IMG/VR virus record: IMGVR_UViG_3300045988_082360
DNA: 63,050 nt
From: a virus
Strand: one strand, 5' to 3'
The notes under the pieces were generated by a model. It was not told the origin of the DNA. It made no database searches and was given only the letters and a program-made list of their open reading frames with translations. Below are positions 1-63,050 of this stretch, one piece after another (within the stretch, counting starts at the first letter, position 1; every line of letters begins with the position of its first letter). The position numbers were made by a program, and so were the translations under genes.

Positions 1-55
1 ACTACACTGATCCAGAACGCAGCGACGCCTTATCCGGTCGAATTCGCCTTCAGCA
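1..55. repeat. terminal redundancy, identical to 62996-63050 (circular-assembly overlap)
   Basis: The 55 nt ACTACACTGATCC...GCCTTCAGCA are identical at both window ends. A coding frame runs through the junction. Confidence 0.9.
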
Positions 56-1485: not shown

Positions 1486-1872
1486 ATGGCAGAGCATAAG
1501 CTTTCCACATTTGACCAGCTCAAAAAGCTGGCACTTGCGGGGAAGAAGGATTCCGCCAAGCAGGTAGCTGAATTGGCGGAGCTTGTTGCCGCCGGACTGG
1601 AGGATCTCCAGCATATCGGCATCTCTGTTACTCTGCCGGCCGCGAATTGGAGCGGCGGAGCGCAGACTGTTGCACATGCTTCCCTCTTAGCTGACAGCAA
1701 CTATATTTATCTTGTAGGCGCAGACGCCGGTACCCGTAATGTGTACGACAGTTATGGCGTGAGCGCAGACAATGTAACTACGAGCGGGCAGATGACTTTC
1801 CGGTGCGATATGACGCCGACCGTTGACTTGTCCGTCTTTATCATTCGACTGGAGGTCGGAACAGATGAGTAA
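1486..1872 (+). CDS. tail-fibre-associated protein
   Basis: The N-terminus STFDQLKKLALAGK is paralogous to the 584 ORF. It lies in the fibre module with an RBS GAAAGGAAGG upstream. Confidence 0.5.
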   Translation: MAEHKLSTFDQLKKLALAGKKDSAKQVAELAELVAAGLEDLQHIGISVTLPAANWSGGAQTVAHASLLADSNYIYLVGADAGTRNVYDSYGVSADNVTTSGQMTFRCDMTPTVDLSVFIIRLEVGTDE

Positions 1873-4735
1873 TGTTGGCAAGGTATTCAACCTTTCCGGC
1901 GGCGGTGGCAGCGGCTCTCCTAAGATGGAAAGTCTGACTATCGCCACCACGCCCAACAAGACGGTCTATAAGTCCGGTGAAACTTTCGACCCCACCGGCA
2001 TGGTCGTTGTGGCAAACTACGGCGAAGGTCTGATGGCAAATGTGACGGGCTATACCGTCTCTCCCTCCGTTCTTACGGACGGGGTGAGCGAAGTTGTCAT
2101 CACCTACACCGAGGGTCGCATCACGAAGACCGCGACGGTTGCCGTGACGGTGGAAAAGGTGCTTGTCAGCATCGCCATCACCACACAGCCGACCAAGACG
2201 GTCTACCAGTATCAGGAGAGCCTTGACCCGGCAGGCATGGTCGTGACCGCGACCTTCTCGGACGGGAGCACGGCGGCTGTACTGGATTACACCTATCCGA
2301 CGACGAACTTCTCTACGCTGGGGCGTCAGGTCATGAAGCTTGAATACACCTACGAAGGTGTGACGAAGAGCACCGACCTTGTCGTTACGGTGCGGGGCAA
2401 AACCATTGTTGTTCCGACGCAGACGAACATCCCGACCTACAACGGTTCAGACAAGACGCCGAGCTGGAACGGCTACGATCCACTCAAAATGGAGATCTCC
2501 GGCGTGACGAGTGCCTCTGACGCAGGCAGTTACACGGCGATCTTCAAGCTGTCCTACGGCTATCTGTTCCCGGACGGCACGGATGAAGCCCGCGTAAAGT
2601 GGACGATCGACCGCGCTGTCATCTCGGTTCTGCCGACGCAGACGGGAACGCTTGTTGCCGACGGCACGAGCAAGACGCCGAGCTGGAATGGCTATGACAC
2701 GGAGAAGATGACCATTGGCGGCGATACCTCCGGTACGGCTGCCGGTGAGTACACGGCGACCTTTACGCCGACTTCCAACTACAAGTGGTCTGATGGCAGC
2801 ACAGGCGCCAAGGAAGTGAAGTGGACGATCATCTCGGTGCTCGTTTCCATTCCTTCGCAGAGCGGTACGCTGACCTACAACGGCAGCGCTCAGACGCCGA
2901 AGTGGCAGAATTTCGACAATGAGAACTCCTCTGTGAGCGTATCTGCCAAGACGAATGCCGGCGAGTACACGGCGACCTTTACCTTGAAGAAAGGTATGTG
3001 GACGGACGGTACGACCGCGGCCAAGACCATCAAGTGGACCATCGGCAGAGCTACCATCGCGGCGGTCCCCGCCCAGAGCGGCACGCTTGTCTATGACGGC
3101 AACCCGAAGACTCCTTCGTGGAACACCGCCTATGACTCGGCAAAGATGACCGTTTCCGTGACGGCCGCTACCAACGCAGGCACTTACAGCGCCACCTTTA
3201 CGCCGACTTCCAACTACAAGTGGTCGGATGGCAGCACCGGAGGCAAGACAGCATCGTGGACGATCGGCAAGGCCGCGAACAGTGTGACCAATTCGCCGAG
3301 CTCCATCGTGCTGAAGAGCAGCGCCAAGACCGCCACCTTTACGGTGAACCGCAAGGGCAACGGCACGATCACAGCCACCTCGAACAACACGGGCGTCGCA
3401 AAGATCAAGTCCATCAATCAAAGCACCGGCGTTGTGACCGTGGAAAGCGTGAACGACACGACCGGCACGGCCAAGATCACAGTCAAGGTCGCCGAGGGTA
3501 CGAATTACAAGGCGGCCTCTGATACGACGGTCAATGTGACGGCCACTTTCGTCACGATCTACGGCGTTGAGTGGGATTGGACGAGCAGCGGCCAGACCAA
3601 GGGCACACGCACAGACGCGGCGGCAAGCTTCGGCGACCCGTCTCCGGCGGTGAACAACGGCAGCGGTTCTTCTCCCTTTGACAACCTGATGCCGTGGTCC
3701 GGTATGGTGAAGGAGACCCGCAGCGGCGGCGTTGAGGTCAAGGAGCCGAAGTATTGGTTCAAGTGGACGAAGACCGGCAAGAAGCTGAAGCTCCAGATCG
3801 CGGACGGTTATGTGGAGGGATTCTCCGTTGACCCTGTAAACAGGGACCGCGGGGATGGCCTTGGCGAGCTGGATTTCTCCTACATCGGCCGCTACCACTG
3901 CGCCAGCGGCTACAAGTCCACCACGGGAGCAGCACAGCAGGTAAACATCACGAGAAGCCAGGCGCGCAGCGGTATTCATAACCTCGGCGCTAACTTCTGG
4001 CAGATGGACTTTGCTCAGTTCTGGTATGTGAACATGCTGTTCCTCGTGGAGTTTGCCGACTGGAACGGCGAGCGCATCGGCAGAGGCTGCTCTACGAGCG
4101 GTTCTAAGATGAACAACGGTCAGACCGACGCGATGGGTTACCACACCGGTACGACCGCAGCAAACCGCGACAGCTACGGCTTCACGCAGTATCGCAACAT
4201 TGAAGGCTGGTGGGACAATGTTTATGACTGGATGGACGGCTGCTACTATAACAGCAACGGCCTGAATGTCATCAGCAATCCCAACAACTTCAGCGACAGC
4301 GCAAATGGCACACCGGTCGGCACACCCTCTTCGGGTTATCCGTCCGACTTCACCATTCCGACAGCAAGCGGTCTTGAATGGGCGCTGTTCCCGAGCGCGG
4401 CAAACGGTAGTACAACGACCTATGTCCCGGATTACTGGTACTTCAGCGGTAGTAACCCGTGCCTGCACCATGGCGGTAACTATAACCAGAACCAGAATCA
4501 CGGTCCGTTCTACGTCAACTACAACAGAACGTCGAACTCGAACGACAACATCGGCTGTCGCATCCTTGCTAAGCCACAGGCTAACCCTCCATTTGGTAGT
4601 AGGGGTTCCTCACCCTTTCTATATCGCACGGTTGACCGCACAGCACTTGCTGAAGAAAAGCCGACAGGACACAGCTTAGTACACTTCGGGCCAGGTCTCG
4701 CCTTGGAACACCCCGCGGCGCTGGAACGGTTGTGA
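1865..4735 (+). CDS. DGR target protein: fibre-like adhesin with Ig-like repeats, four MBG-like repeats, a Big_2-like domain and a C-terminal C-type-lectin/FGE-type fold
   Basis: GGAGG lies 9 nt before ATG 1865. Repeats of the type PTQTGTL..DG..KTPSWNGYD...AGEYTATFTP occur. The C-terminus GWWDNVYDW...YWYFSGSNPCLHHGGNYNQNQNHGPFYVNYNRTSNSNDNIGCRI is typical of a DGR variable region. An RT gene follows immediately. Confidence 0.8.
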   Translation: MSNVGKVFNLSGGGGSGSPKMESLTIATTPNKTVYKSGETFDPTGMVVVANYGEGLMANVTGYTVSPSVLTDGVSEVVITYTEGRITKTATVAVTVEKVLVSIAITTQPTKTVYQYQESLDPAGMVVTATFSDGSTAAVLDYTYPTTNFSTLGRQVMKLEYTYEGVTKSTDLVVTVRGKTIVVPTQTNIPTYNGSDKTPSWNGYDPLKMEISGVTSASDAGSYTAIFKLSYGYLFPDGTDEARVKWTIDRAVISVLPTQTGTLVADGTSKTPSWNGYDTEKMTIGGDTSGTAAGEYTATFTPTSNYKWSDGSTGAKEVKWTIISVLVSIPSQSGTLTYNGSAQTPKWQNFDNENSSVSVSAKTNAGEYTATFTLKKGMWTDGTTAAKTIKWTIGRATIAAVPAQSGTLVYDGNPKTPSWNTAYDSAKMTVSVTAATNAGTYSATFTPTSNYKWSDGSTGGKTASWTIGKAANSVTNSPSSIVLKSSAKTATFTVNRKGNGTITATSNNTGVAKIKSINQSTGVVTVESVNDTTGTAKITVKVAEGTNYKAASDTTVNVTATFVTIYGVEWDWTSSGQTKGTRTDAAASFGDPSPAVNNGSGSSPFDNLMPWSGMVKETRSGGVEVKEPKYWFKWTKTGKKLKLQIADGYVEGFSVDPVNRDRGDGLGELDFSYIGRYHCASGYKSTTGAAQQVNITRSQARSGIHNLGANFWQMDFAQFWYVNMLFLVEFADWNGERIGRGCSTSGSKMNNGQTDAMGYHTGTTAANRDSYGFTQYRNIEGWWDNVYDWMDGCYYNSNGLNVISNPNNFSDSANGTPVGTPSSGYPSDFTIPTASGLEWALFPSAANGSTTTYVPDYWYFSGSNPCLHHGGNYNQNQNHGPFYVNYNRTSNSNDNIGCRILAKPQANPPFGSRGSSPFLYRTVDRTALAEEKPTGHSLVHFGPGLALEHPAALERL
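4430..4566 (+). repeat. single DGR repeat element (TR-like adenine-rich sequence occupying the VR position)
   Basis: Nine Asn codons (8 AAC, 1 AAT) fall within 26 codons at nt 4478-4555. No second copy was seen in any intergenic region. Confidence 0.5.
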
Positions 4736-4761
4736 GGCTACAAGGAGGAAAAACATCCCTG
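4567..4761 (+). ncRNA. possible DGR spacer RNA region between the repeat and the RT
   Basis: This 195-nt stretch has non-protein-like translation (ANPPFGSRGSSPFLYRTVDRTALAEEKPTG...) although it is formally still in the target ORF. Its position matches the TR-Sp-RT layout of characterised DGRs. Confidence 0.3.
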
Positions 4762-5937
4762 ATGAAACGAGTTCGAGTTTACAAAGAGATCATATCGGAC
4801 GAAAACCTTCGTCTGGCAATTCGGGAAGTGAACGCCGGCCATCGGCGAAACGGCAATCACAGCCTGAACAAAAAGGTCATTGAGATCGAAAATAATATGG
4901 ATGAATATGTGGAGAAGCTCCGAGCATTCATCCAAGGTCTGGTCGACGGAGACGAGCACATGCACCCTCCCATTAAGCGACGGCGCTGGGACCGCAACGC
5001 AGACAGCGGTAAAGGCAAATGGAGAGACATCAACGAGCCGCTTCTGTGGCCGGACCAATATGTTCACCACGCTGTTGTGCAGCCGATGATCCCGCACATT
5101 ATGCGGAGCATGGACCGGTACTGCATCGCAAGCGTCCCCGGCCGAGGGAACTCCTACGGCGTCAAGGCATTGAAGAAGTGGATGAAGAACGATGTAAATG
5201 GCACGAAGTATTGCTGCGAGTGCGACATCTACCACTGCTTTGAGGAGCTTGACCCGCCGTATGTCATCGAAGCTTTGAAGCGGGTGTTCAAGGACACCGA
5301 AACGCTCTGGCTGTGCGACGCCATTATGGAATACGGAGTCCTCATCGGCGCATTCTTCTCCGCATGGTTTCTCCATTTGACACTCCAGCCCTTGGATCTG
5401 ATGATCCATCAAAAGCAGTATGGCGTATCACACTATGTACGGCAGATGGACAACTTCACGATCTTTGGTTCCAACAAGCGAAAGCTGAGGAAGCTGCTGG
5501 AGGATATTAAGAAGTGGCTTGCCGAGATCGGAATGAAGATCAAAGGTAACTGGCAGATCTTCCGCGTCGGGTTTACGCCAAAAGTCGAGAGAGCACATCA
5601 GGCTTTGCCGAAGAAAAAGCAACGGCACCGCCGCCCGCGCTTACCATCGGCTCTTGGATACCGATTCGGACACGGTTACACGATCTTGCGAAAGCATAAT
5701 CTATTCCGGCTCAAGCAATCGCTTCATCTTTACTACTACCGGCGAGACAGGAACCGCGTCATCTCATTCAAGAGGGCTTCGGGGCTGATCTCACGGCTCG
5801 GACAGCTTCGCAAATGCAATCATCAGCAGGTTTTGGACAGGCATTACCAGCCCAAGACGATGTTTGCACTGAAGAAGGTCGTCCGAAAGGAGTGCAGAAG
5901 ACTTCAGGCATTATATCCGCCCTATCAGGCGGCATAA
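4762..5937 (+). CDS. DGR-type reverse transcriptase with non-canonical active site (QMDN instead of YxDD)
   Basis: RBS AAGGAGGA precedes ATG 4762. RT motifs present: INEPLLWPDQYVHHAVV, SVPGRGNSYG, CDIYHCFEELD, LIGAFFSAWFLHL, YVRQMDNFTIFG and LGYRF. Confidence 0.8.
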   Translation: MKRVRVYKEIISDENLRLAIREVNAGHRRNGNHSLNKKVIEIENNMDEYVEKLRAFIQGLVDGDEHMHPPIKRRRWDRNADSGKGKWRDINEPLLWPDQYVHHAVVQPMIPHIMRSMDRYCIASVPGRGNSYGVKALKKWMKNDVNGTKYCCECDIYHCFEELDPPYVIEALKRVFKDTETLWLCDAIMEYGVLIGAFFSAWFLHLTLQPLDLMIHQKQYGVSHYVRQMDNFTIFGSNKRKLRKLLEDIKKWLAEIGMKIKGNWQIFRVGFTPKVERAHQALPKKKQRHRRPRLPSALGYRFGHGYTILRKHNLFRLKQSLHLYYYRRDRNRVISFKRASGLISRLGQLRKCNHQQVLDRHYQPKTMFALKKVVRKECRRLQALYPPYQAA

Positions 5938-5952
5938 AAAGGAGTGATTTTC

Positions 5953-6330
5953 ATGAAAGTACAGGGAATGGTCAACCCCGGCAGTTTTACTGTGGAAGAG
6001 ATCCCCGGTACCAAACGAAGTCTTGTCCGTCTCTACCAGAATGTGGAGGCGTGCAAGATCGCTAAGGATGCCGAGGACAAGGAAGGTCTTGACGGGTTCC
6101 AGTATGACGAATACTGCGTTGAGGTCGAGAGTTGGCCCGGACTTGCTGCCAGCGTGCGGGAGAACTACGACACCTACCTTGCAAAGGGTAAGGACAATGA
6201 GGTCGACCGCAGTAACGATGCGTTGTTCCGCGCTCAGAAAAACACAGACTCCATCGTCCAGGATACGGACGCGATGAGCGTGGATCACGAATACCGACTG
6301 ACCCTGCTTGAGCTGGGTCTCTCGGAATAA
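5953..6330 (+). CDS. hypothetical phage protein (XkdW-like position)
   Basis: RBS AAAAGGAG lies 8 nt before ATG 5953. The gene sits between the fibre/DGR genes and the XkdX-like gene. Confidence 0.45.
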   Translation: MKVQGMVNPGSFTVEEIPGTKRSLVRLYQNVEACKIAKDAEDKEGLDGFQYDEYCVEVESWPGLAASVRENYDTYLAKGKDNEVDRSNDALFRAQKNTDSIVQDTDAMSVDHEYRLTLLELGLSE

Positions 6331-7918: not shown

Positions 7919-9154
7919 CTATTTTATTTTTTCGATTTCTTCCTTCAGCCAGTCGAATTCTCGCTGGGTATAGACCTTTTCGGTGATGTCGGATATCTTG
8001 TGACCGACCATGTATTTGATTGCATATTCGTCAATACCGGCTTTCTTTGCGGCCGTGACAAAGTGCTTTCTTCCGTCGTGAGGACGATGCTCCGGGTTAA
8101 GATTAAGCTCGTCACGAATCATCTCAAAGCCGGCCTTATAGCGTTGATAGCTCATCATCACAGTCTTGCCGCTGCGCTTGTCTTTGCAGTTGAAGAGATA
8201 TGGGCTGCCGATTTCTTTGGCTTTATTGTAATGTCGCTCCACAAGGTAACGAATTTTTGAGTGGATAGGTACGACGCGGTCTTCACCAGCTTCGGTCTTG
8301 ATGCCGCCTTTGAAAGTGCCATTCTCAAGGTCTACATTGGCAAGCTCAATTAGGCCGAGCTCTTGTGGACGCCATCCAGAATAACATTGAATGAGTATCA
8401 CATCAACGAAATTCTTATCGTCGACATGCTCCCAGAGCTTTGATATTTCTTCGTCCGTAAAAGGTATGTGCTCTTTCTTGACTTTCTGGATCTCTTTGAT
8501 CGTTTCGTCAGTCAGCTTGAATGTGCGCGAGTAGTTTCTGTCGACGATCTCATATTCCAGAGCATAGTCAAGCATCAGGTTGAACAAGGACTTGATCTTG
8601 TTCTTCATGGATGCGCTGGCGTGCTGCTCTTTCCCTCTGACAGTGGCAACACCCTCATCCATGCAGCCTTTCACATGGCGGGCACGGACATCCATCACTC
8701 GCATATCGTAGACAGCCGAACAATACTTCCAAGCTGAAGTAACGGCTCGTGAACTGCCATCCGATTTGAGCGTCTTGAAATACTCTTCCGACCACTTGTC
8801 GTAAAGCTCTTTGACGGTGATCGCGGCGCCGAGGTCATAAGGATTCTTATTGTATTCCACGAGCGCTGCATATGCGTCATTATAAGTTGCAAAATATGAG
8901 TCAGGCTTGAGCGGTTTGCAAATTGGCTTGCCGTCCTGAGTCTTTCCAACCGTAACCATCGCCCGAAAGGGATTCCGAAGGTTGCGGTTTTTTATTTCGC
9001 TGATTTGGCCAAACCCGTTCGGGAGGCGTCTTCGTTTATTGTTTTTGGCTCTCGGTTTTCGCTTTACTGACGGCTTCATTGGATAGCCGCAATGAGGGCA
9101 AGCCGGAGCCTTGTCGCTTACCTGCAATTCGCATTCAGGGCATTTTACAAGCAT
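7919..9154 (-). CDS. int: tyrosine recombinase / integrase with N-terminal zinc ribbon
   Basis: Motifs: CPECELQVSDKAPACPHCG; SGWRPQEL (Arg); HRPHDGRKHF (HxxR); VGHKISDITEKVYTQ (His, Tyr). GGAGG lies 8 nt before ATG 9154. The ORF is open up to 9193. Confidence 0.85.
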   Translation of the reverse strand: MLVKCPECELQVSDKAPACPHCGYPMKPSVKRKPRAKNNKRRRLPNGFGQISEIKNRNLRNPFRAMVTVGKTQDGKPICKPLKPDSYFATYNDAYAALVEYNKNPYDLGAAITVKELYDKWSEEYFKTLKSDGSSRAVTSAWKYCSAVYDMRVMDVRARHVKGCMDEGVATVRGKEQHASASMKNKIKSLFNLMLDYALEYEIVDRNYSRTFKLTDETIKEIQKVKKEHIPFTDEEISKLWEHVDDKNFVDVILIQCYSGWRPQELGLIELANVDLENGTFKGGIKTEAGEDRVVPIHSKIRYLVERHYNKAKEIGSPYLFNCKDKRSGKTVMMSYQRYKAGFEMIRDELNLNPEHRPHDGRKHFVTAAKKAGIDEYAIKYMVGHKISDITEKVYTQREFDWLKEEIEKIK

Positions 9155-9200
9155 TAGTTGCACCTCCATAGTTGATTTGTCCTTTGTAATCATATATTAT

Positions 9201-9230
9201 GGTGTAGGAGTTGTCAAGATATTCCTACAC
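9201..9230. promoter_or_regulatory. operator-like inverted repeat GTGTAGGA-N13-TCCTACAC in the int / early divergent region
   Basis: It lies between the int start and the first + strand gene, and TTGTCA lies inside the spacer. Confidence 0.45.
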
Positions 9231-9248
9231 TTTATTTTTGATGGAGCG

Positions 9249-9623: not shown

Positions 9624-9875
9624 ATGAACGAGCAAGAGTTCCCTCAGGGGTCTGTCCCCGTGGCTGTTGCGGCCCGTGTGTATGGCAAAGATGCTTCATG
9701 GGTTCGTGCCGGCATTGTCTCAGGGTGGCTCCCGATTGGCAAAGCCACTCGCAGCGGAAAATTAGTCACAACCATCGAGGAGATGGATTCACGCTATGGC
9801 CGTATCAACTTTTACATCTCCCCAAAGCGTCTCTACGAGGAGACAGGATTTTTATGGAAAGGAGAACGACAATAA
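9624..9875 (+). CDS. small HTH protein (excisionase/AlpA-like)
   Basis: The segment VAVAARVYGKDASWVRAGIVSGWLPIGKA resembles the excisionase-family HTH pattern. RBS AAAGGAGG is upstream. Confidence 0.4.
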   Translation: MNEQEFPQGSVPVAVAARVYGKDASWVRAGIVSGWLPIGKATRSGKLVTTIEEMDSRYGRINFYISPKRLYEETGFLWKGERQ

Positions 9876-10297
9876 TGGCAACGGAAATCCGTCCGGAGCT
9901 GTCTGAGAAAAATCCGTACTGGATTGGCAAGCACCGGTATTACGAGCTAAAGCATTTCTGCCTCCAGTATCCGATCTGGAAGAAAGCCTATAATGCCCTG
10001 CTTGGCCTGAGCAGCCGTCCGAACGACCTTGATATTTTTGTCAAGAGTGGCCAAGTACGGAGCGATCCAACTGCAAGGTGTGCGGAATCTCGCGTATCCT
10101 TTGCCAAACGGATGGAACTGGTCGAGCAAGCTGCCATTGGTACGGACGGTGACCTCTATCCTTATATTTTGCGAGGGGTCACAGAGGGTATGTCCTACAA
10201 TGCCTTGAAAATGCAGTACGCCATTCCATGTTGCCGCGAGGTCTACTACAACTTGTATCGACGATTCTTCTGGCTGCTGAGTAAGGAGCGTGATTGA
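9875..10297 (+). CDS. sigma-70 region-4-like / ArpU-type transcription regulator
   Basis: The C-terminus GVTEGMSYNALKMQYAIPCCREVYYNLYRRFFWLL resembles the sigma r4 / ArpU-family HTH. The gene is about 140 aa. Confidence 0.4.
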   Translation: MATEIRPELSEKNPYWIGKHRYYELKHFCLQYPIWKKAYNALLGLSSRPNDLDIFVKSGQVRSDPTARCAESRVSFAKRMELVEQAAIGTDGDLYPYILRGVTEGMSYNALKMQYAIPCCREVYYNLYRRFFWLLSKERD

Positions 10298-10298
10298 G

Positions 10299-10505
10299 AT
10301 GCGGATTGTGAATGTGGCGGTCAGACAATGCTACCGCTTCAACTGCCCGAATTGCGGGAGCAAGCTGGAAGCTGACAGTGACGAGCTGGTTGATGTCGGT
10401 GGAAAGACCAGTCGGTTCTGGTGTCCTGTCTGCCGAGAGGAAAGATACATTCCATGGTCTTCTTTGAGAAAACGGACGGTCTACGAGGACAGTTCCGCAG
10501 ATTAA
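10299..10505 (+). CDS. zinc-ribbon protein
   Basis: It has CPNCGS...CPVCRE pairs. Confidence 0.5.
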   Translation: MRIVNVAVRQCYRFNCPNCGSKLEADSDELVDVGGKTSRFWCPVCREERYIPWSSLRKRTVYEDSSAD

Positions 10506-10522
10506 GCAAACCCCTTTATGGA
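10495..10522 (+). promoter_or_regulatory. 28-nt conserved motif, copy A
   Basis: CCGCAGATTAAGCAAACCCCTTTATGGA. It overlaps the stop of the upstream gene, 16 nt before ATG 10538. Confidence 0.6.
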
Positions 10523-10537
10523 AAGGAGTGTTTTTCT

Positions 10538-10854: not shown

Positions 10855-11082
10855 ATGGAACTCATCATTGGCATTGCTGTCGGCATTATCATCGGGCTTG
10901 TAGTCGGAACGCTTATATTTCGGCGAAGGTATATTCCCGTCGGCGATCTTCGGATCGACCGTTCTGACCCGACGAGCGAACCATTTCTGTTTCTCGAATT
11001 AGGCACAGATGTGCGAACTATTTCTGGTATGAAAACCGTCACACTCAGCGTTCGCAACGAGAATTTCCTCCCGCACGAATAA
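10855..11082 (+). CDS. small membrane protein
   Basis: N-terminal TM helix ELIIGIAVGIIIGLVVGTLIF. RBS TGGAGG is upstream. Confidence 0.5.
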   Translation: MELIIGIAVGIIIGLVVGTLIFRRRYIPVGDLRIDRSDPTSEPFLFLELGTDVRTISGMKTVTLSVRNENFLPHE

Positions 11083-11098
11083 CACCCCCTATTATGGA
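11071..11098 (+). promoter_or_regulatory. 28-nt conserved motif, copy B
   Basis: CCGCACGAATAACACCCCCTATTATGGA. It overlaps the stop codon at 11080-11082. Confidence 0.6.
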
Positions 11099-11126
11099 GT
11101 CAACTTATTGAAAGGAGAAATGCAAT

Positions 11127-11537: not shown

Positions 11538-11586
11538 GCCAACAGGCGTTGAGAGTCGTGTAAAAAACACGCTCTCTTCGCTTTTT

Positions 11587-11614
11587 TCGTAGATTTTGCA
11601 GGGCGCTTTATGGA
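11587..11614 (+). promoter_or_regulatory. 28-nt conserved motif, copy C
   Basis: TCGTAGATTTTGCAGGGCGCTTTATGGA, located after a T-run. Confidence 0.6.
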
Positions 11615-11702
11615 AAGGAGATACCTAAGAGCTCTTTATATCTCTCGACTTAATACCGGAGGTACTGTATAATAGCAGCTACTTCCAGATTAACAGGAGG
11701 TA

Positions 11703-12467: not shown

Positions 12468-12494
12468 CGCCAATCCAGCAGCCCCTATTATGGA
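12467..12494 (+). promoter_or_regulatory. 28-nt conserved motif, copy D (more divergent 5' half)
   Basis: GCGCCAATCCAGCAGCCCCTATTATGGA. Confidence 0.5.
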
Positions 12495-12523
12495 TACCAA
12501 TACCTATGAAAGGGGTTAGGAGT

Positions 12524-12745: not shown

Positions 12746-12774
12746 GAGCCGTTTTATGCGGCTCTTTTCTTTTT
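12746..12774 (+). terminator. intrinsic terminator
   Basis: Stem GAGCCG-TTTTATG-CGGCTC followed by TTTTCTTTTT. Confidence 0.7.
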
Positions 12775-12802
12775 CCGCAGATTTTGCAACTCATATTATG
12801 GA
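12775..12802 (+). promoter_or_regulatory. 28-nt conserved motif, copy E, abutting the tRNA-like gene
   Basis: CCGCAGATTTTGCAACTCATATTATGGA. The tRNA-like acceptor stem starts 2 nt later. Confidence 0.6.
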
Positions 12803-12803
12803 G

Positions 12804-12877
12804 AAACAGTTAGCTCAGTGGTAGAGCGCTTCACAAAACCAGTGAAGAGGTGATCGGTTCGAGTCCGATACTGCTTC
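12804..12877 (+). tRNA. tRNA-like gene with an aberrant anticodon arm (identity undeterminable)
   Basis: It has a canonical D-arm (GCTC AGTGGTA GAGC), a 5-nt variable loop and a T-arm (ATCGG TTCGAGT CCGAT). The acceptor is 7 bp with one A-C mismatch. The anticodon arm is 19 nt (CTTCA-CAAAACCAG-TGAAG) with no T in the loop. No CCA is encoded. Confidence 0.5.
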
Positions 12878-14475: not shown

Positions 14476-14479
14476 TTTC

Positions 14480-14507
14480 CCGCAAAAACTACATCGCCTA
14501 TTATGGA
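14480..14507 (+). promoter_or_regulatory. 28-nt conserved motif, copy F
   Basis: CCGCAAAAACTACATCGCCTATTATGGA. Confidence 0.6.
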
Positions 14508-14523
14508 AAGGAGGTCATGCTTT

Positions 14524-15786: not shown

Positions 15787-15814
15787 GCGCAGATTTTGCA
15801 TCTCCTATTATGGA
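15787..15814 (+). promoter_or_regulatory. 28-nt conserved motif, copy G
   Basis: GCGCAGATTTTGCATCTCCTATTATGGA. Confidence 0.6.
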
Positions 15815-15857
15815 GAACCAAACAACAAAAATTACTTTTGAAAAGGAGAATTTTACT

Positions 15858-30637: not shown

Positions 30638-30665
30638 GCGCAAAAAGTACATCGCCTATTATGGA
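30638..30665 (+). promoter_or_regulatory. 28-nt conserved motif, copy H
   Basis: GCGCAAAAAGTACATCGCCTATTATGGA. Confidence 0.6.
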
Positions 30666-30681
30666 AGGAGGTTGTTAGGCT

Positions 30682-34440: not shown

Positions 34441-34455
34441 TGCCCTTTTTGGCTT

Positions 34456-34483
34456 CCGCAGAAAAAACAGGGTCTTTTATGGA
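34456..34483 (+). promoter_or_regulatory. 28-nt conserved motif, copy I (heads the operon containing the polymerase-like gene)
   Basis: CCGCAGAAAAAACAGGGTCTTTTATGGA. Confidence 0.6.
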
Positions 34484-34549
34484 GAAGAGAGAGATGTGTT
34501 ACACATTTCCCTCTCTCCATTTTATTTTTTGTCGAAAGGAGGTCATTTC

Positions 34550-40308: not shown

Positions 40309-40846
40309 ACTTTGCCACTATGGCATCAAAGGCCAGAAATGGGGCGTTCGCCGTTTTCAGAATTCAGACGGCAGTTACACCTCTGAGGGAAAACGCCGCG
40401 CTCAGCAGCAGGAGAAGAAAGATCCTGTGAAAGAGATGAAAGATGAAGACCTTAGAAAGGCAATCACTCGGTTATCTCTGGAAAACAAATATAAGGATCT
40501 GACCAAAAAGCCGACCCCGCCCTCCAAGCTTGAGTCGACCAAGAAAGCTGTGGATGCCACTTCCGAGCTTGTTAATCGGGCGAAGAAGATGGATCAGGAC
40601 AGCCGCAAGGCTGCGAAGAAAGAGCGGATGGACCTGAGCAAGAAGACCGACAAGGAGCTTCGCGACCAGATCAACCGTGAGCTTTTGGAACGGCAGTACA
40701 ACGATCTGTTTGCCAAGGAGTCGGTGTCCAAAGGCCGCCGCTATCTTTCCGATGTGCTTGACAACGCAGGAACGGTTTTGGCTGTCGGCAGTTCGGCTCT
40801 GAGCATTGCTCTCGCAATTCAGCAGTTGCAGAAGAAGGCGGGGTAA
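40301..40846 (+). CDS. HYGIKGQKWG-motif protein with coiled coil and C-terminal TM
   Basis: The N-terminus is MDELCHYGIKGQKWGVRRFQNSDGSYTSEGKRR. The C-terminus contains AGTVLAVGSSALSIALAI. Confidence 0.5.
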   Translation: MDELCHYGIKGQKWGVRRFQNSDGSYTSEGKRRAQQQEKKDPVKEMKDEDLRKAITRLSLENKYKDLTKKPTPPSKLESTKKAVDATSELVNRAKKMDQDSRKAAKKERMDLSKKTDKELRDQINRELLERQYNDLFAKESVSKGRRYLSDVLDNAGTVLAVGSSALSIALAIQQLQKKAG

Positions 40847-42612: not shown

Positions 42613-43599
42613 ATGGATTACCTTGACAAGCCTGACCCGCAAACTTTTATCGCTCACCATGGTATCAAAGGCCAGAAATGGGGCATTCGCCGTTTCCAGA
42701 ATGAAGACGGTAGCTTGACAAAGGCGGGAAAAGAGCGATACAATGAACAAAACAGCCCCAATTCGAGTGATAACTCCGAGAACCAAAAGTTTCATTTGAC
42801 TGAAAAGCAGAAGAAATATTGCAAAACCGTTGCGATTGCCACAGGAGCTGCTTTGGTCGTTTATGCTGGCTTTAAGCTCGCAGATAGCGGTGAATTGAAT
42901 AGACTCTGTGAAAAGGCAAAAGAGTTGAGCCTTGGCGCTGACTACAAAAGCTTTTCAAGAAACGATTCTTTTACAGGTGAGATGAGCGTATCGCAAGTAA
43001 AAGAGAAGTTCCTTAATCGCATTAACCCTGAATATGGCAATTCTCTCGGAAGTTTCATGAATTGTAGGCGGTGTACTTTTGCCTATGAGCTTTCAAGGCG
43101 TGGCTATGATGTGCAGGCGACCAAAACTCTTATTGGAACGGGTCAGGACGCCAACGGAATGAATCAAATGCTGTTTGTGCCACGGTTCACGAAAAAAGAA
43201 TACAAGGAAGCTTTGAATGCGTACACTCATGATTCTTCCATCTATGCCGCTAATAACTTTATAAAAAGGCTTACTGGTGGTTTTTCAGAGGACATACATC
43301 TTTCTAAGAAAAATGCCATCAGGGATGTGTATGACGCATTTAGTAAAATGCCTAATTCTGCAAGAGGCGAGTTATCCGTAACGTGGAAGGGGCATAATGG
43401 CGGCCATAGTCTTGCTTGGGAGGTCATCAATAATAAGCCTGTTATTTTTGATTTCCAGACCCATAAGGTATATGAGACACCTGATAAGTTTTCTGAAATC
43501 GCCAACATGTTCGACGGGCTTGATACCGCTACATTATGCCGACTTGATGATAAGGACTTAAATCTCGATCTTCTTCGGCGATGGGTAAAGCATAGCTAA
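42613..43599 (+). CDS. HYGIKGQKWG-motif protein with TM and a papain-fold (Cys-His-Asp) toxin/protease-like C-domain
   Basis: The N-terminus contains HHGIKGQKWGIRRFQNEDGSLTKAGKERY. TM helix VAIATGAALVVYAGFKLA. The C-domain contains FMNCRRCTFAYELSRRGYDV...GGHSLAWEVINNKPVIFDFQTH. Confidence 0.45.
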   Translation: MDYLDKPDPQTFIAHHGIKGQKWGIRRFQNEDGSLTKAGKERYNEQNSPNSSDNSENQKFHLTEKQKKYCKTVAIATGAALVVYAGFKLADSGELNRLCEKAKELSLGADYKSFSRNDSFTGEMSVSQVKEKFLNRINPEYGNSLGSFMNCRRCTFAYELSRRGYDVQATKTLIGTGQDANGMNQMLFVPRFTKKEYKEALNAYTHDSSIYAANNFIKRLTGGFSEDIHLSKKNAIRDVYDAFSKMPNSARGELSVTWKGHNGGHSLAWEVINNKPVIFDFQTHKVYETPDKFSEIANMFDGLDTATLCRLDDKDLNLDLLRRWVKHS

Positions 43600-62950: not shown

Positions 62951-63050
62951 TTGAAAATCGCGATCAAAAGCTGCTTCACCACGCTGGTGGAGGACACTAC
63001 ACTGATCCAGAACGCAGCGACGCCTTATCCGGTCGAATTCGCCTTCAGCA
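62951..63050 (+). CDS. 5' part of the junction-spanning tail-fibre-module gene (continues at nt 1-555)
   Basis: AGGAGG lies 9 nt before TTG 62951. The frame is in phase with ATG 55 after circularisation. Confidence 0.55.
   Translation, partial: MKIAIKSCFTTLVEDTTLIQNAATPYPVEFAFS
62996..63050. repeat. terminal redundancy, identical to nt 1-55
   Basis: Exact 55-nt identity with the window start. Confidence 0.9.

Follow-up and report, generated by a model that had tools for sequence, protein, structure and literature searches.

Organization of the locus

We analysed the DGR locus of a 63,050-nt viral contig (IMG/VR record IMGVR_UViG_3300045988_082360), which in its full length is referred to below as the window. 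The two ends of the window overlap by 55 nt and the contig thus closes as a 62,995-bp circle; an overlap of this size is, we assume, what a k=55 de Bruijn assembler leaves behind, and it suggests that the window was assembled by SPAdes at k=55. At the locus, the gene of a tail protein, the DGR target, runs in frame into one AAC-codon-rich repeat copy (4424-4565), which is followed directly on its 3' side by a spacer and an RT gene (Table 1), the arrangement that an earlier note on this DNA had described.

Table 1. Features of the DGR locus and the contig ends, in window positions
Feature	Position	Strand	Basis
55-nt terminal overlap	1..55	.	identical to 62996-63050 (100%); repeat family D7
Tail-protein DGR target gene, chimeric 956-codon ORF here	1865..4735	+	ORF list; PHROG 'tail protein' and Pfam Big_3 matches; relatives' gene calls
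VR-derived 5' part of repeat	4424..4446	+	alignment to relatives' TRs and VRs; differs from every TR solely at TR adenines
Candidate crossover interval	4447..4453	+	between last VR-type substitution and repeat positions 31/32
TR-derived part of repeat	4447..4565	+	TR type throughout; position 139 (4562) is TR-type A
DGR spacer, non-coding, between TR and RT	4566..4761	+	98-99% identity to relatives' TR-RT spacer
RT-18 RNA motif (Rfam RF03021)	4641..4747	+	cmscan 66.9 bits, gathering score 41.3, E=3e-11, full model
DGR-type reverse transcriptase, 391 aa, intact	4762..5937	+	Pfam RVT_1; motif C QMDN, motif 4 IGAFFSA

The frame of the target is open across 1823-4735, with a probable ATG at 1865. 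Its stretch YVPDYWYFSGSNPCLHHGGNYNQNQNHGPFYVNYNRTSNSNDNIGCRI contains nine Asn codons, eight AAC and one AAT, in agreement with the earlier count. The Ile codon of GCRI ends at 4564, and a further 56 sense codons follow before a TGA (4733-4735) that lies 26 nt upstream of the RT start codon, again as previously described. The native product in intact relatives is 908 aa long according to gene calls and ends in ...IGCRLQERPPKAA, with the stop 8 codons past GCRL. This conserved C-terminus, LQERPPKAA (LQKLP across the clade), always lies 3-8 residues from the end of the VR and is missing in the fused form; a gene-position collection, stated to cover 153 billion positions, has no record of the fused 956-aa protein. 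DGR targets typically bear a variable tip with a C-type-lectin (or Ig) fold. For the tip of this target, a domain search gave no Pfam match, a profile of 27 target C-termini matched no PDB sequence, phmmer likewise returned nothing meaningful, and a single-sequence AlphaFold model reached a pLDDT of 29. The sequence pattern of the tip presumably resembles that of CLec-type VRs, a resemblance in pattern only.

The repeat copy is a hybrid of VR and TR

Alignment to the TRs and VRs of relatives revealed that the first 23 nt of the window's repeat copy are of VR type, while the following 119 nt are TR-like with 0 substitutions. In the VR-type part there are three substitutions, each of which hits a TR adenine (4433 A>T, 4439 A>T, and 4446 A>G) and which change Asn to Tyr, Asn to Tyr, and Asn to Ser, respectively; over the same 23 positions the VRs of relatives have 1-6 substitutions (median 3). 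The TRs of L001 and seven more relatives have exactly the sequence of the copy from 4447 onward, and the remaining TRs differ at a few strain-polymorphic sites. Across repeat positions 24-138 all 34 adenines are kept and no substitution is present, compared to 10-22 substitutions in 55 genuine VRs, and position 139 is the TR-type A, whereas 54 of the 55 VRs carry a C. Since repeat positions 31/32 are mutated in 87% of VRs, the crossover most likely took place inside the 7-nt candidate interval, provided that the window's own VR resembled this majority. The repeat had been taken for an undiversified template, and this description fits from 4447 onward but not in the VR-type first 23 nt.

We found no second repeat copy in the window: in an ungapped scan of both strands with four sub-windows, the sequence being treated as circular, the best match to 4430-4566 covered 58 of 137 positions, which is background, and a repeat search of the whole window likewise found none, as had been claimed. 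The window thereby lacks a TR/VR pair differing almost only at TR adenines, the DGR hallmark that its relatives display. It also lacks the recipient-site elements of the relatives, namely the target-gene stop and a GC-rich hairpin 3' of the VR (ACGCCCGCC-AAA-GGCGGCGT, starting 6 nt 3' of the VR). The copy could in principle be an ordinary undiversified VR whose TR lies elsewhere or on another replicon, as its Asn-rich composition, and nothing more, would suggest; we give this reading practically no credence, since the copy continues into the TR's own flank (spacer, RT-18, and RT) instead of a VR flank with stop and hairpin, and since the closed circle holds no other copy.

Relatives carry two repeat copies

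We compared more than 100 related loci, covering 80 from IMG/VR, 47 from MAGs and isolates, and 18 that share with the window an exact copy of the RT or of the upstream 128-aa protein, and judged the layout wherever the flank sufficed. Every relative with enough flank had two repeat copies, arranged as target-VR, gap, TR, spacer, and RT. The single-repeat layout was confined to single contigs: near-identical genomes have two copies, and none of the more than 100 relatives with sufficient flank was collapsed. Mismatches between TR and VR fell on TR adenines in 994 of 1024 cases, and almost all were at A in the MAG and isolate loci too. Close relatives aligned to the window as two overlapping pieces, with the window up to 4565 matching the VR and the window from 4424 matching the TR 291-294 nt downstream, so that about 292 nt of the intact layout are missing from the window. 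The gap sequence of a restored locus would read AGGAACGCCCGCCAAAGGCGGCGTGAC... This two-piece alignment and the hybrid repeat bear out the earlier proposal, in which a VR-TR collapse joined a TR-like copy to the target.

The nearest strains shared 96-98% identity over 12 kb; a same-strain intact twin, which would reveal the window's true VR, was not found among the relatives, and blastn in distant mode against the GenBank phage collection gave one irrelevant 162-nt match. The phage is a very common temperate phage of human-gut Oscillospiraceae with a canonical, active DGR.

No avd-like gene (PF05635) or other accessory gene (avd or HRDC) was recognised in the neighbouring ORFs or in the plausible small plus-strand ORFs of the window, which were scanned as concatenated sequences with antisense-looking ones dropped by eye; within this scope, the reported lack of avd is confirmed. 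The suggestion that the collapse removed avd is not, as the clade's cassette has none: the VR-TR gap, which measures ~150 nt in close relatives and ~120-380 nt in the clade as a whole, contains no ORF for Avd and has no room for an accessory gene.

The extension of the target is spacer sequence with an RT-18 RNA

The reading frame through the spacer is not conserved among relatives: in L004, L047, and L052 it ends at a stop codon past the 51st codon, and frameshifts interrupt it in the 83% group. On this comparison, the 56-codon extension of the target is read-through of the DGR spacer and not a protein-coding feature. The tail had been called non-protein-like; it is indeed non-coding, but it carries a known structured RNA, catalogued in Rfam as RT-18. 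The 3' end of the RT-18 motif includes the Shine-Dalgarno sequence of the RT (AAGGAG), and the motif also spans the TGA of the fused ORF. An MFE fold of the entire spacer was uninformative (z-score 0.1), and the RNA was identified by the Rfam covariance model instead. Neither promoters nor terminators rose above shuffle expectation when the window locus and an intact relative were scanned for them.

The locus thus shows a further DGR hallmark, a TR immediately 5' of the RT with a structured spacer RNA in between. Motifs RT-1 to RT-19 occur near RT genes, and only RT-10 has been assigned to a DGR, the others being a matter of speculation (Weinberg 2017, PMC5737381). The window matches the full RT-18 model, and RT-18 here lies between TR and RT, in the spacer of a DGR that demonstrably diversifies. 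A literature search for RT-18 by name found nothing.

Comparison with known DGRs

The locus shares with the DGR of Bordetella phage BPP-1 (mtd-avd-TR-brt) a bRT-related RT, a TR just 5' of the RT with a structured spacer RNA between them, a VR at the 3' end of a tail-protein gene, adenine-specific changes, and, in relatives, a GC hairpin after the VR. It differs from BPP-1 in that no avd lies between VR and TR and none was recognised in the scanned ORFs, in motif C (QMDN compared to YMDD) and motif 4 (IGAFFSA compared to IGSLTSQ), in the merger of VR and TR in the window contig, and in the spacer RNA, which is RT-18 here and RT-10 in BPP-1 (Weinberg 2017, PMC5737381). With the Avd-less target-VR/TR/RT cassettes of prophages of Oscillospiraceae and other Clostridia, the window's own clade, it has in common the gene order, a repeat of ~140 nt, the tip motif ...GG.Y.Q....G.F.V.....S.....IGCRLQ..P directly before the stop, and xMDN-type RTs. 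However, all other members of the clade have two repeat copies, and the window one hybrid copy.

Origin of the single-repeat layout

The single-repeat layout is probably a merger of VR and TR produced as an assembly artefact, and the join would then date from library preparation or assembly and would not have arisen in a cell. The contig path would jump from the first 23 nt of the VR to the homologous TR position and drop ~292 nt, comprising what remains of the VR, the target's 8 final codons with their stop, the GC hairpins after the VR, and an A/T-rich stretch before the TR. Because the VR would differ among the phage genomes in a sample while the TR stays constant, the de Bruijn graph would fragment at the VR, and the high-coverage TR path would offer a shortcut. 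The appearance of a single-repeat DGR and the 56-codon tail of the target would then be due to the VR/TR join and not be features of the phage. The window resembles the de Bruijn collapse of a short direct repeat in having one hybrid copy, lost inter-repeat DNA, a breakpoint within the repeat, other assemblies fragmented at the same place, and a terminal overlap of k-mer size. It differs in that the repeats are only 85-90% identical, from which we infer that collapse needs within-sample VR heterogeneity or chimeric intermediates.

The region from VR to RT is a demonstrated assembly trouble spot, as 20 of the 80 related contigs in IMG/VR have their first base somewhere from the VR start to the RT start, and in one (L033) poly-G/poly-C junk is attached at this place. 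The collapse-specific pattern and the window's exact junction had 0 matches each in IMG/VR. The same collapse was present in five further human-gut metagenome contigs, in which the last VR-type substitution lies at repeat position 10, 31, 31, 67, and 124, compared to 23 in the window; three of the five have SPAdes NODE names (coverage 3.7-12.6x), so that at least three are SPAdes assemblies. Judged by their junctions, the six collapsed contigs are independent events: no junction is common to samples and none has spread.

There are also points against an artefact. Intact SPAdes contigs of the same phage exist elsewhere, and the assembler thus does not always fail at this locus. Moreover, a k=55 graph should emit only 55-mers present in reads or lower-k contigs, so that some VR-5'/TR-3' junction molecule or intermediate contig must have existed, which might just as well have been a real deletion variant as a PCR chimera.

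The earlier note had named both a biological deletion and an assembly artefact as routes to the collapse, and both are still live, with the artefact favoured and a deletion that leaves a fossil DGR the doubtful one. On this less likely reading, the VR and TR direct repeats would have recombined in the phage population, or replication would have slipped from one to the other; the DGR would be dead as a result, and the tail protein would have its mostly Asn-rich tip frozen and end in a 56-residue extension. The repeats have the precise geometry of a direct-repeat deletion (142-nt VR and TR, 85-90% identical, 292 nt apart), the junction 55-mers must stem from some molecule, the five further collapsed contigs come from independent samples, and the crossover of one of them (L081), past position 124 near the 3' end, lies in the longest VR/TR-identical block. 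Against this, none of the six junctions is common between samples, whereas intact genomes with an identical RT occur in many. Neither RT nor spacer shows decay; an RT protein identical to that of the window was found in 110 blocks of public assemblies, intact cassettes included, and because the RT is intact and identical to those of intact cassettes, the loss is either very recent or not real. Furthermore, the fused form lacks the conserved native C-terminus, the window's crossover falls in a 7-nt interval if its VR was like 87% of the others, and the locus is independently known to break assemblies. We also considered an RT-mediated "retro-deletion", in which cDNA joins the VR to the TR locus, and rejected it, as the TR-like part is free of adenine changes and hence not cDNA-derived.

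The collapsed element had also been suggested to be possibly self-templating, in which case the fused copy would act as TR, transcribed by read-through along with the spacer, and at the same time receive the mutagenised cDNA made from it. In favour of this, the RT, the spacer RNA, and the repeat lie in one orientation, and each is intact. However, self-homing would irreversibly erode adenines, and 34 of 34 in positions 24-138 are intact; the copy has the TR-type A at 139 and no post-VR GC hairpin; and the collapsed layout occurs in six unrelated one-offs and no lineage. In phage BPP-1, IMH/IMH* elements and the hairpin reportedly set recipient status, and by analogy the window copy, with a TR-type 139 and no hairpin, should not be a cDNA recipient. 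We regard a functional single-repeat DGR of this kind as effectively excluded.

Returning to the assembly artefact, the virus has a standard DGR and most likely lacks the odd single-repeat architecture. DGR loci of metagenome-assembled "complete" phage genomes can accordingly collapse silently, besides fragmenting, and yield fused ORFs and seemingly VR-less DGRs; six such contigs came to light for this phage alone. A check for hybrid VR/TR copies is therefore advisable wherever orphan RTs or degenerate DGRs are counted in surveys. Were the single-copy form instead a genuine in vivo product of VR x TR deletions recurring independently across human-gut phage populations, which we entertain only tentatively, each deletion would inactivate the DGR, fix the receptor-binding tip in what is largely the template (Asn-rich) state, and extend the target protein by 56 residues translated from spacer RNA; DGRs would then carry a built-in route of recurrent self-inactivation.

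A DGR RT clade with an altered catalytic box

The best and only PDB match of the window RT was Bordetella bRT (8ub7, E=2.7e-5), aligned across motifs 2-6, and the relatives of this RT adjoin A-mutated repeat pairs, which places it in the DGR clade. A retron or group II intron, which would likewise combine an RT with an upstream RNA, was rejected, as the only solved relative is bRT and relatives carry A-mutated repeat pairs; a group II maturase model scored 41 bits, compared to a cut-off of 300 bits.

For DGR RTs, [I/L/V]GxxxSQ in motif 4 has been described as diagnostic and the YxDD catalytic box as 100% conserved (PMC3521204). The window RT deviates from both motifs with IGAFFSA and QMDN, and a sister group keeps SQ but has YMDN. 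In this RT clade of Oscillospiraceae-phage DGRs, Asn thus replaces the second catalytic Asp of YxDD, either as YMDN or as QMDN with SA in place of SQ. A literature search found no paper that pairs YMDN with reverse transcriptase or DGR. Genomes with the identical QMDN RT carry differing VRs that are diversified adenine-specifically. Because the QMDN/YMDN clade shows A-specific diversification, the motif rule needs relaxing, and QMDN and IGAFFSA are no ground for excluding an element from the DGRs. The xMDN clade contradicts the report that both aspartates are 100% conserved among DGR RTs (PMC3521204) and is possibly of more interest than the collapse itself.

A single repeat copy fused to the target gene

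The window closes as a 62,995-bp circle, with nucleotides 1-55 an exact repeat of 62996-63050, and the product of its long ORF (Table) is a tail protein that has Big_3 repeats and, at its C-terminus, a PHROG "tail protein" domain. The earlier note had described here a diversity-generating retroelement (DGR) with only one repeat copy, Asn-codon-rich like a template repeat (TR), fused to the target gene and followed by spacer and reverse transcriptase (RT). This description was accurate, since the ORF and the RT start codon are as it had them, the repeat-encoded end of the protein reads ...YVPDYWYFSGSNPCLHHGGNYNQNQNHGPFYVNYNRTSNSNDNIGCRI with 9 Asn codons (8 of them AAC), the target frame stays open for 56 codons beyond that end until a TGA at 4733-4735, and no second repeat copy exists on either strand of the window, where the best ungapped match (58/137) is at background level.

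Table. Features of the window and of a close relative
Feature	Position	Strand	Basis or remark
Long ORF (target gene)	1823-4735	+	probable ATG 1865; ORF list
RT gene	ATG 4762	+	391 aa; TGA of target ORF 26 nt before ATG
RT motif 4, IGAFFSA	5341-5361	+	alignment to bRT (8ub7)
RT motif C, QMDN	5440-5451	+	alignment to bRT (8ub7)
28-36-nt motif	10493-10528, 11072-11099, 11585-11620, 12468-12495, 12773-12808, 14478-14513, 15788-15815, 30639-30666, 34454-34489		
3' part of variable repeat and gap in close relative L141	locus 8940-9229		

Relatives keep two repeats

A search with the RT gave 270 relatives in IMG/VR, 80 of which were fetched, and 47 from MAGs and isolates, mostly gut Oscillospiraceae and other Clostridia. 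The window's exact RT protein is found in 110 blocks of public assemblies, and 4,607 sequences belong to its 90% cluster. Wherever the upstream DNA of a locus sufficed, window 4300-4565 matched the end of the target gene (75-91% identity), and a second site, located 291-294 nt downstream, matched window 4424-4765 with identities of up to 99%. The target-gene site is the variable repeat (VR) and the downstream site the TR; 994 of 1024 TR-to-VR mismatches fell on TR adenines. The same two-site, adenine-biased pattern was found in more distant cassettes, including those of cultured isolates. The native target protein of the relatives has 908 aa and ends ...IGCRLQERPPKAA at its stop, 8 residues past the VR-encoded GCRL. 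The VR-TR gap of ~150 nt, which includes AGGAACGCCCGCCAAAGGCGGCGTGACTGTTCCCC..., contains two GC hairpins, one starting 6 nt after the VR and a second, strong one with a T-rich run behind it, as well as an A/T-rich stretch. No ORF for Avd was found in this gap, and in the window a scan of the cassette's neighbours and of the plausible small plus-strand ORFs gave no Avd (PF05635) either. The window's element works like the DGR of Bordetella phage BPP-1 and belongs to an Avd-less Clostridia-phage DGR clade with the order target-VR, TR, RT-18 spacer, RT.

Two variations on this layout were seen. Some phages of the 83% group have a second VR with adenine-only changes ~1.9 kb downstream of the RT (L060 and L063, locus 9095-9234; also L057, L064 and L070), giving two target genes per cassette, with no counterpart in the window. 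Furthermore, three phages otherwise ~97% identical to the window (L146, L147, L148) carry a different DGR module with a 953-aa target and a 384-aa RT. The exchanged block comprises the target C-terminal domain, VR, TR and RT (corresponding to window 3550-6262), and cassette and receptor-binding tip appear to have been exchanged as one unit.

The window repeat is a hybrid of VR and TR

Against the TRs of close relatives, the window's 142-nt copy (4424-4565) showed three constant differences, 4433 A>T, 4439 A>T and 4446 A>G, all at TR adenines commonly mutated in VRs; the remaining differences are TR strain polymorphisms. Nucleotides 4447-4565 are of TR type, identical to the TR of eight relatives (L001 and seven others), and are followed by the TR's own downstream flank. 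At repeat positions 1-23 the window has 3 substitutions compared to 1-6 (median 3) in 55 genuine VRs of the same TR type, and at positions 24-138 it has 0 compared to 10-22 (median 14). The repeat thus reads as a VR/TR hybrid: with VR-like positions 1-23 and TR-like sequence from 4447, the contig passes from VR to TR between 4447 and ~4453 and lacks ~292 nt, namely the remainder of the VR, the end of the target gene (8 codons and stop), the hairpins and the DNA upstream of the TR. The earlier note's reading of a VR-TR collapse is therefore supported, by the VR-type 5' part joined to a TR-type 3' part and by the two copies kept in relatives. Its suggestion that avd was removed in the process is wrong, as the cassette of this clade has no avd to lose.

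The same note had raised the possibility of a fossil or possibly self-templating DGR. A self-homing copy would lose adenines, but all 34 at positions 24-138 are intact. Only at position 139 do the repeats differ in a nearly fixed way, with A in the TR and C in 54 of 55 VRs; there the window carries the TR base, and its copy is without the post-VR hairpin. In BPP-1, IMH versus IMH* and a hairpin reportedly decide which repeat is the recipient, and by these equivalents we infer that the fused copy should not accept cDNA. The self-templating reading was accordingly rejected.

Artefact or genuine deletion

A collapse-specific pattern (VR upstream flank, 110-125 nt, TR downstream flank) gave 0 matches in IMG/VR and five in metagenome contigs, all from human gut (ENA contigs ORSL01001085, ERZ838118 NODE_3115, OGUO01000919, OKXE01000494 and OPVK01000900), three of which have SPAdes NODE names and a coverage of 3.7-12.6x. 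The VR-like part differs in each collapsed contig, and the last VR-type substitution lies at repeat position 10, 31, 31, 67 or 124 in these five compared to 23 in the window. The six collapsed contigs are independent events, none seen twice. In all six the TR-like part is without adenine changes and hence stems from the DNA of the TR, not from mutagenised cDNA, which excludes an RT-mediated origin of the join.

We consider the collapse to be probably an artefact of assembly or library preparation. The locus demonstrably defeats assemblers: in 20 of the 80 IMG/VR contigs the first nucleotide falls between the starts of VR and RT, and the IMG/VR locus L033 (locus 1400-1480) is joined to poly-G/poly-C junk ~180 nt upstream of the TR, another misassembly at the VR end. 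Such failure would be expected if the VR is heterogeneous within samples while the TR is not. The 55-nt overlap between the window's ends is of the size that circular contigs retain after de Bruijn assembly with k=55. A true deletion between the direct repeats in the source sample, for which the main argument is that the junction k-mers must stem from some molecule or intermediate contig, is less likely: no collapse event recurs, while intact genomes encoding the identical RT were recovered repeatedly, from many samples and by assemblers including Logan, MEGAHIT and SPAdes, and the RT and spacer of the window are undecayed. The fused target protein is not on record in the gene-position collection. 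The "single-repeat DGR" is thus most likely no feature of the phage and in itself of low interest; for practical work it teaches that a hybrid VR/TR copy in a "complete" metagenomic phage genome is the mark of a silently collapsed DGR locus.

In one Logan contig (L143), a 642-nt segment inside the RT gene is inverted (locus 9805-10446, corresponding to window 4998-5639), breaking the RT into three short ORFs; this inversion could be real or another assembly error.

The spacer contains an RT-18 RNA

The 56 extra codons, called non-protein-like in the earlier note, are TR-RT spacer and not protein. Rfam RT-18 RNA (RF03021) gave a full-length match at 4641-4747 (66.9 bits against a gathering score of 41.3) that takes in the RT Shine-Dalgarno sequence and the TGA closing the target ORF. 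The open frame over the spacer is unconserved, with a stop after 51 codons in three relatives (L004, L047, L052) and frameshifts in the 83% group. RT-1 to RT-19 were described as motifs adjoining RT genes, of which RT-10 alone was tied to a DGR and the others were speculated upon (Weinberg et al., 2017; PMC5737381). RT-18, unassigned in that description, here lies between TR and RT, in the spacer of a DGR family that is demonstrably active.

An Asn replaces the second catalytic Asp of the RT

In an alignment to the BPP-1 RT (bRT, PDB 8ub7), QMDN of the window RT falls on YMDD and IGAFFSA on IGSLTSQ, and the window's RT group combines QMDN with SA in place of SQ. Both aspartates were reported to be 100% conserved in DGR RTs and SQ to be diagnostic (Schillinger et al., 2012; PMC3521204); a literature search found no paper mentioning YMDN with RT. 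QMDN occurs in 88 fetched loci (RT at least 81% identical to the window's) and YMDN or YIDN in 37 (37-53% identical), while YMDD is confined to the 5 most distant. Among 50%-identity representatives, x-x-D-N (YMDN, YIDN, YLDN, HMDN, YADN, YVDN) was found in ~26 clusters, mostly among the closest non-QMDN matches; most, not all, of the more distant matches have YxDD. Sister RT groups, including those of cultured Oscillospiraceae and Butyricicoccus, have YMDN, YIDN, YLDN or HMDN. In loci with x-x-D-N RTs, including those of isolates such as Butyricicoccus pullicaecorum DSM 23266, repeat-pair mismatches lie almost all at adenines, and different VRs occur in genomes encoding the identical QMDN RT. 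To judge by these adenine-specific mismatches and differing VRs, diversification evidently takes place in the clade even with Asn in place of the second catalytic Asp. Besides the window, the loci with Asn at this position of YxDD include L075-L124 and P0126-P0253.

Other repeats in the window

A 28-36-nt motif, TTCCGCAGATTTTGCA......TTTATGGA[A/G]AGGAG, has about nine occurrences in the window (Table), often with a ribosome-binding site at its end, and resembles a shared promoter or regulatory element of an early or replication gene block. Finally, two neighbouring structural genes share a 78-nt direct repeat (40316-40393 and 42655-42732, 81% identical) that codes for the peptide HYGIKGQKWG[V/I]RRFQN.
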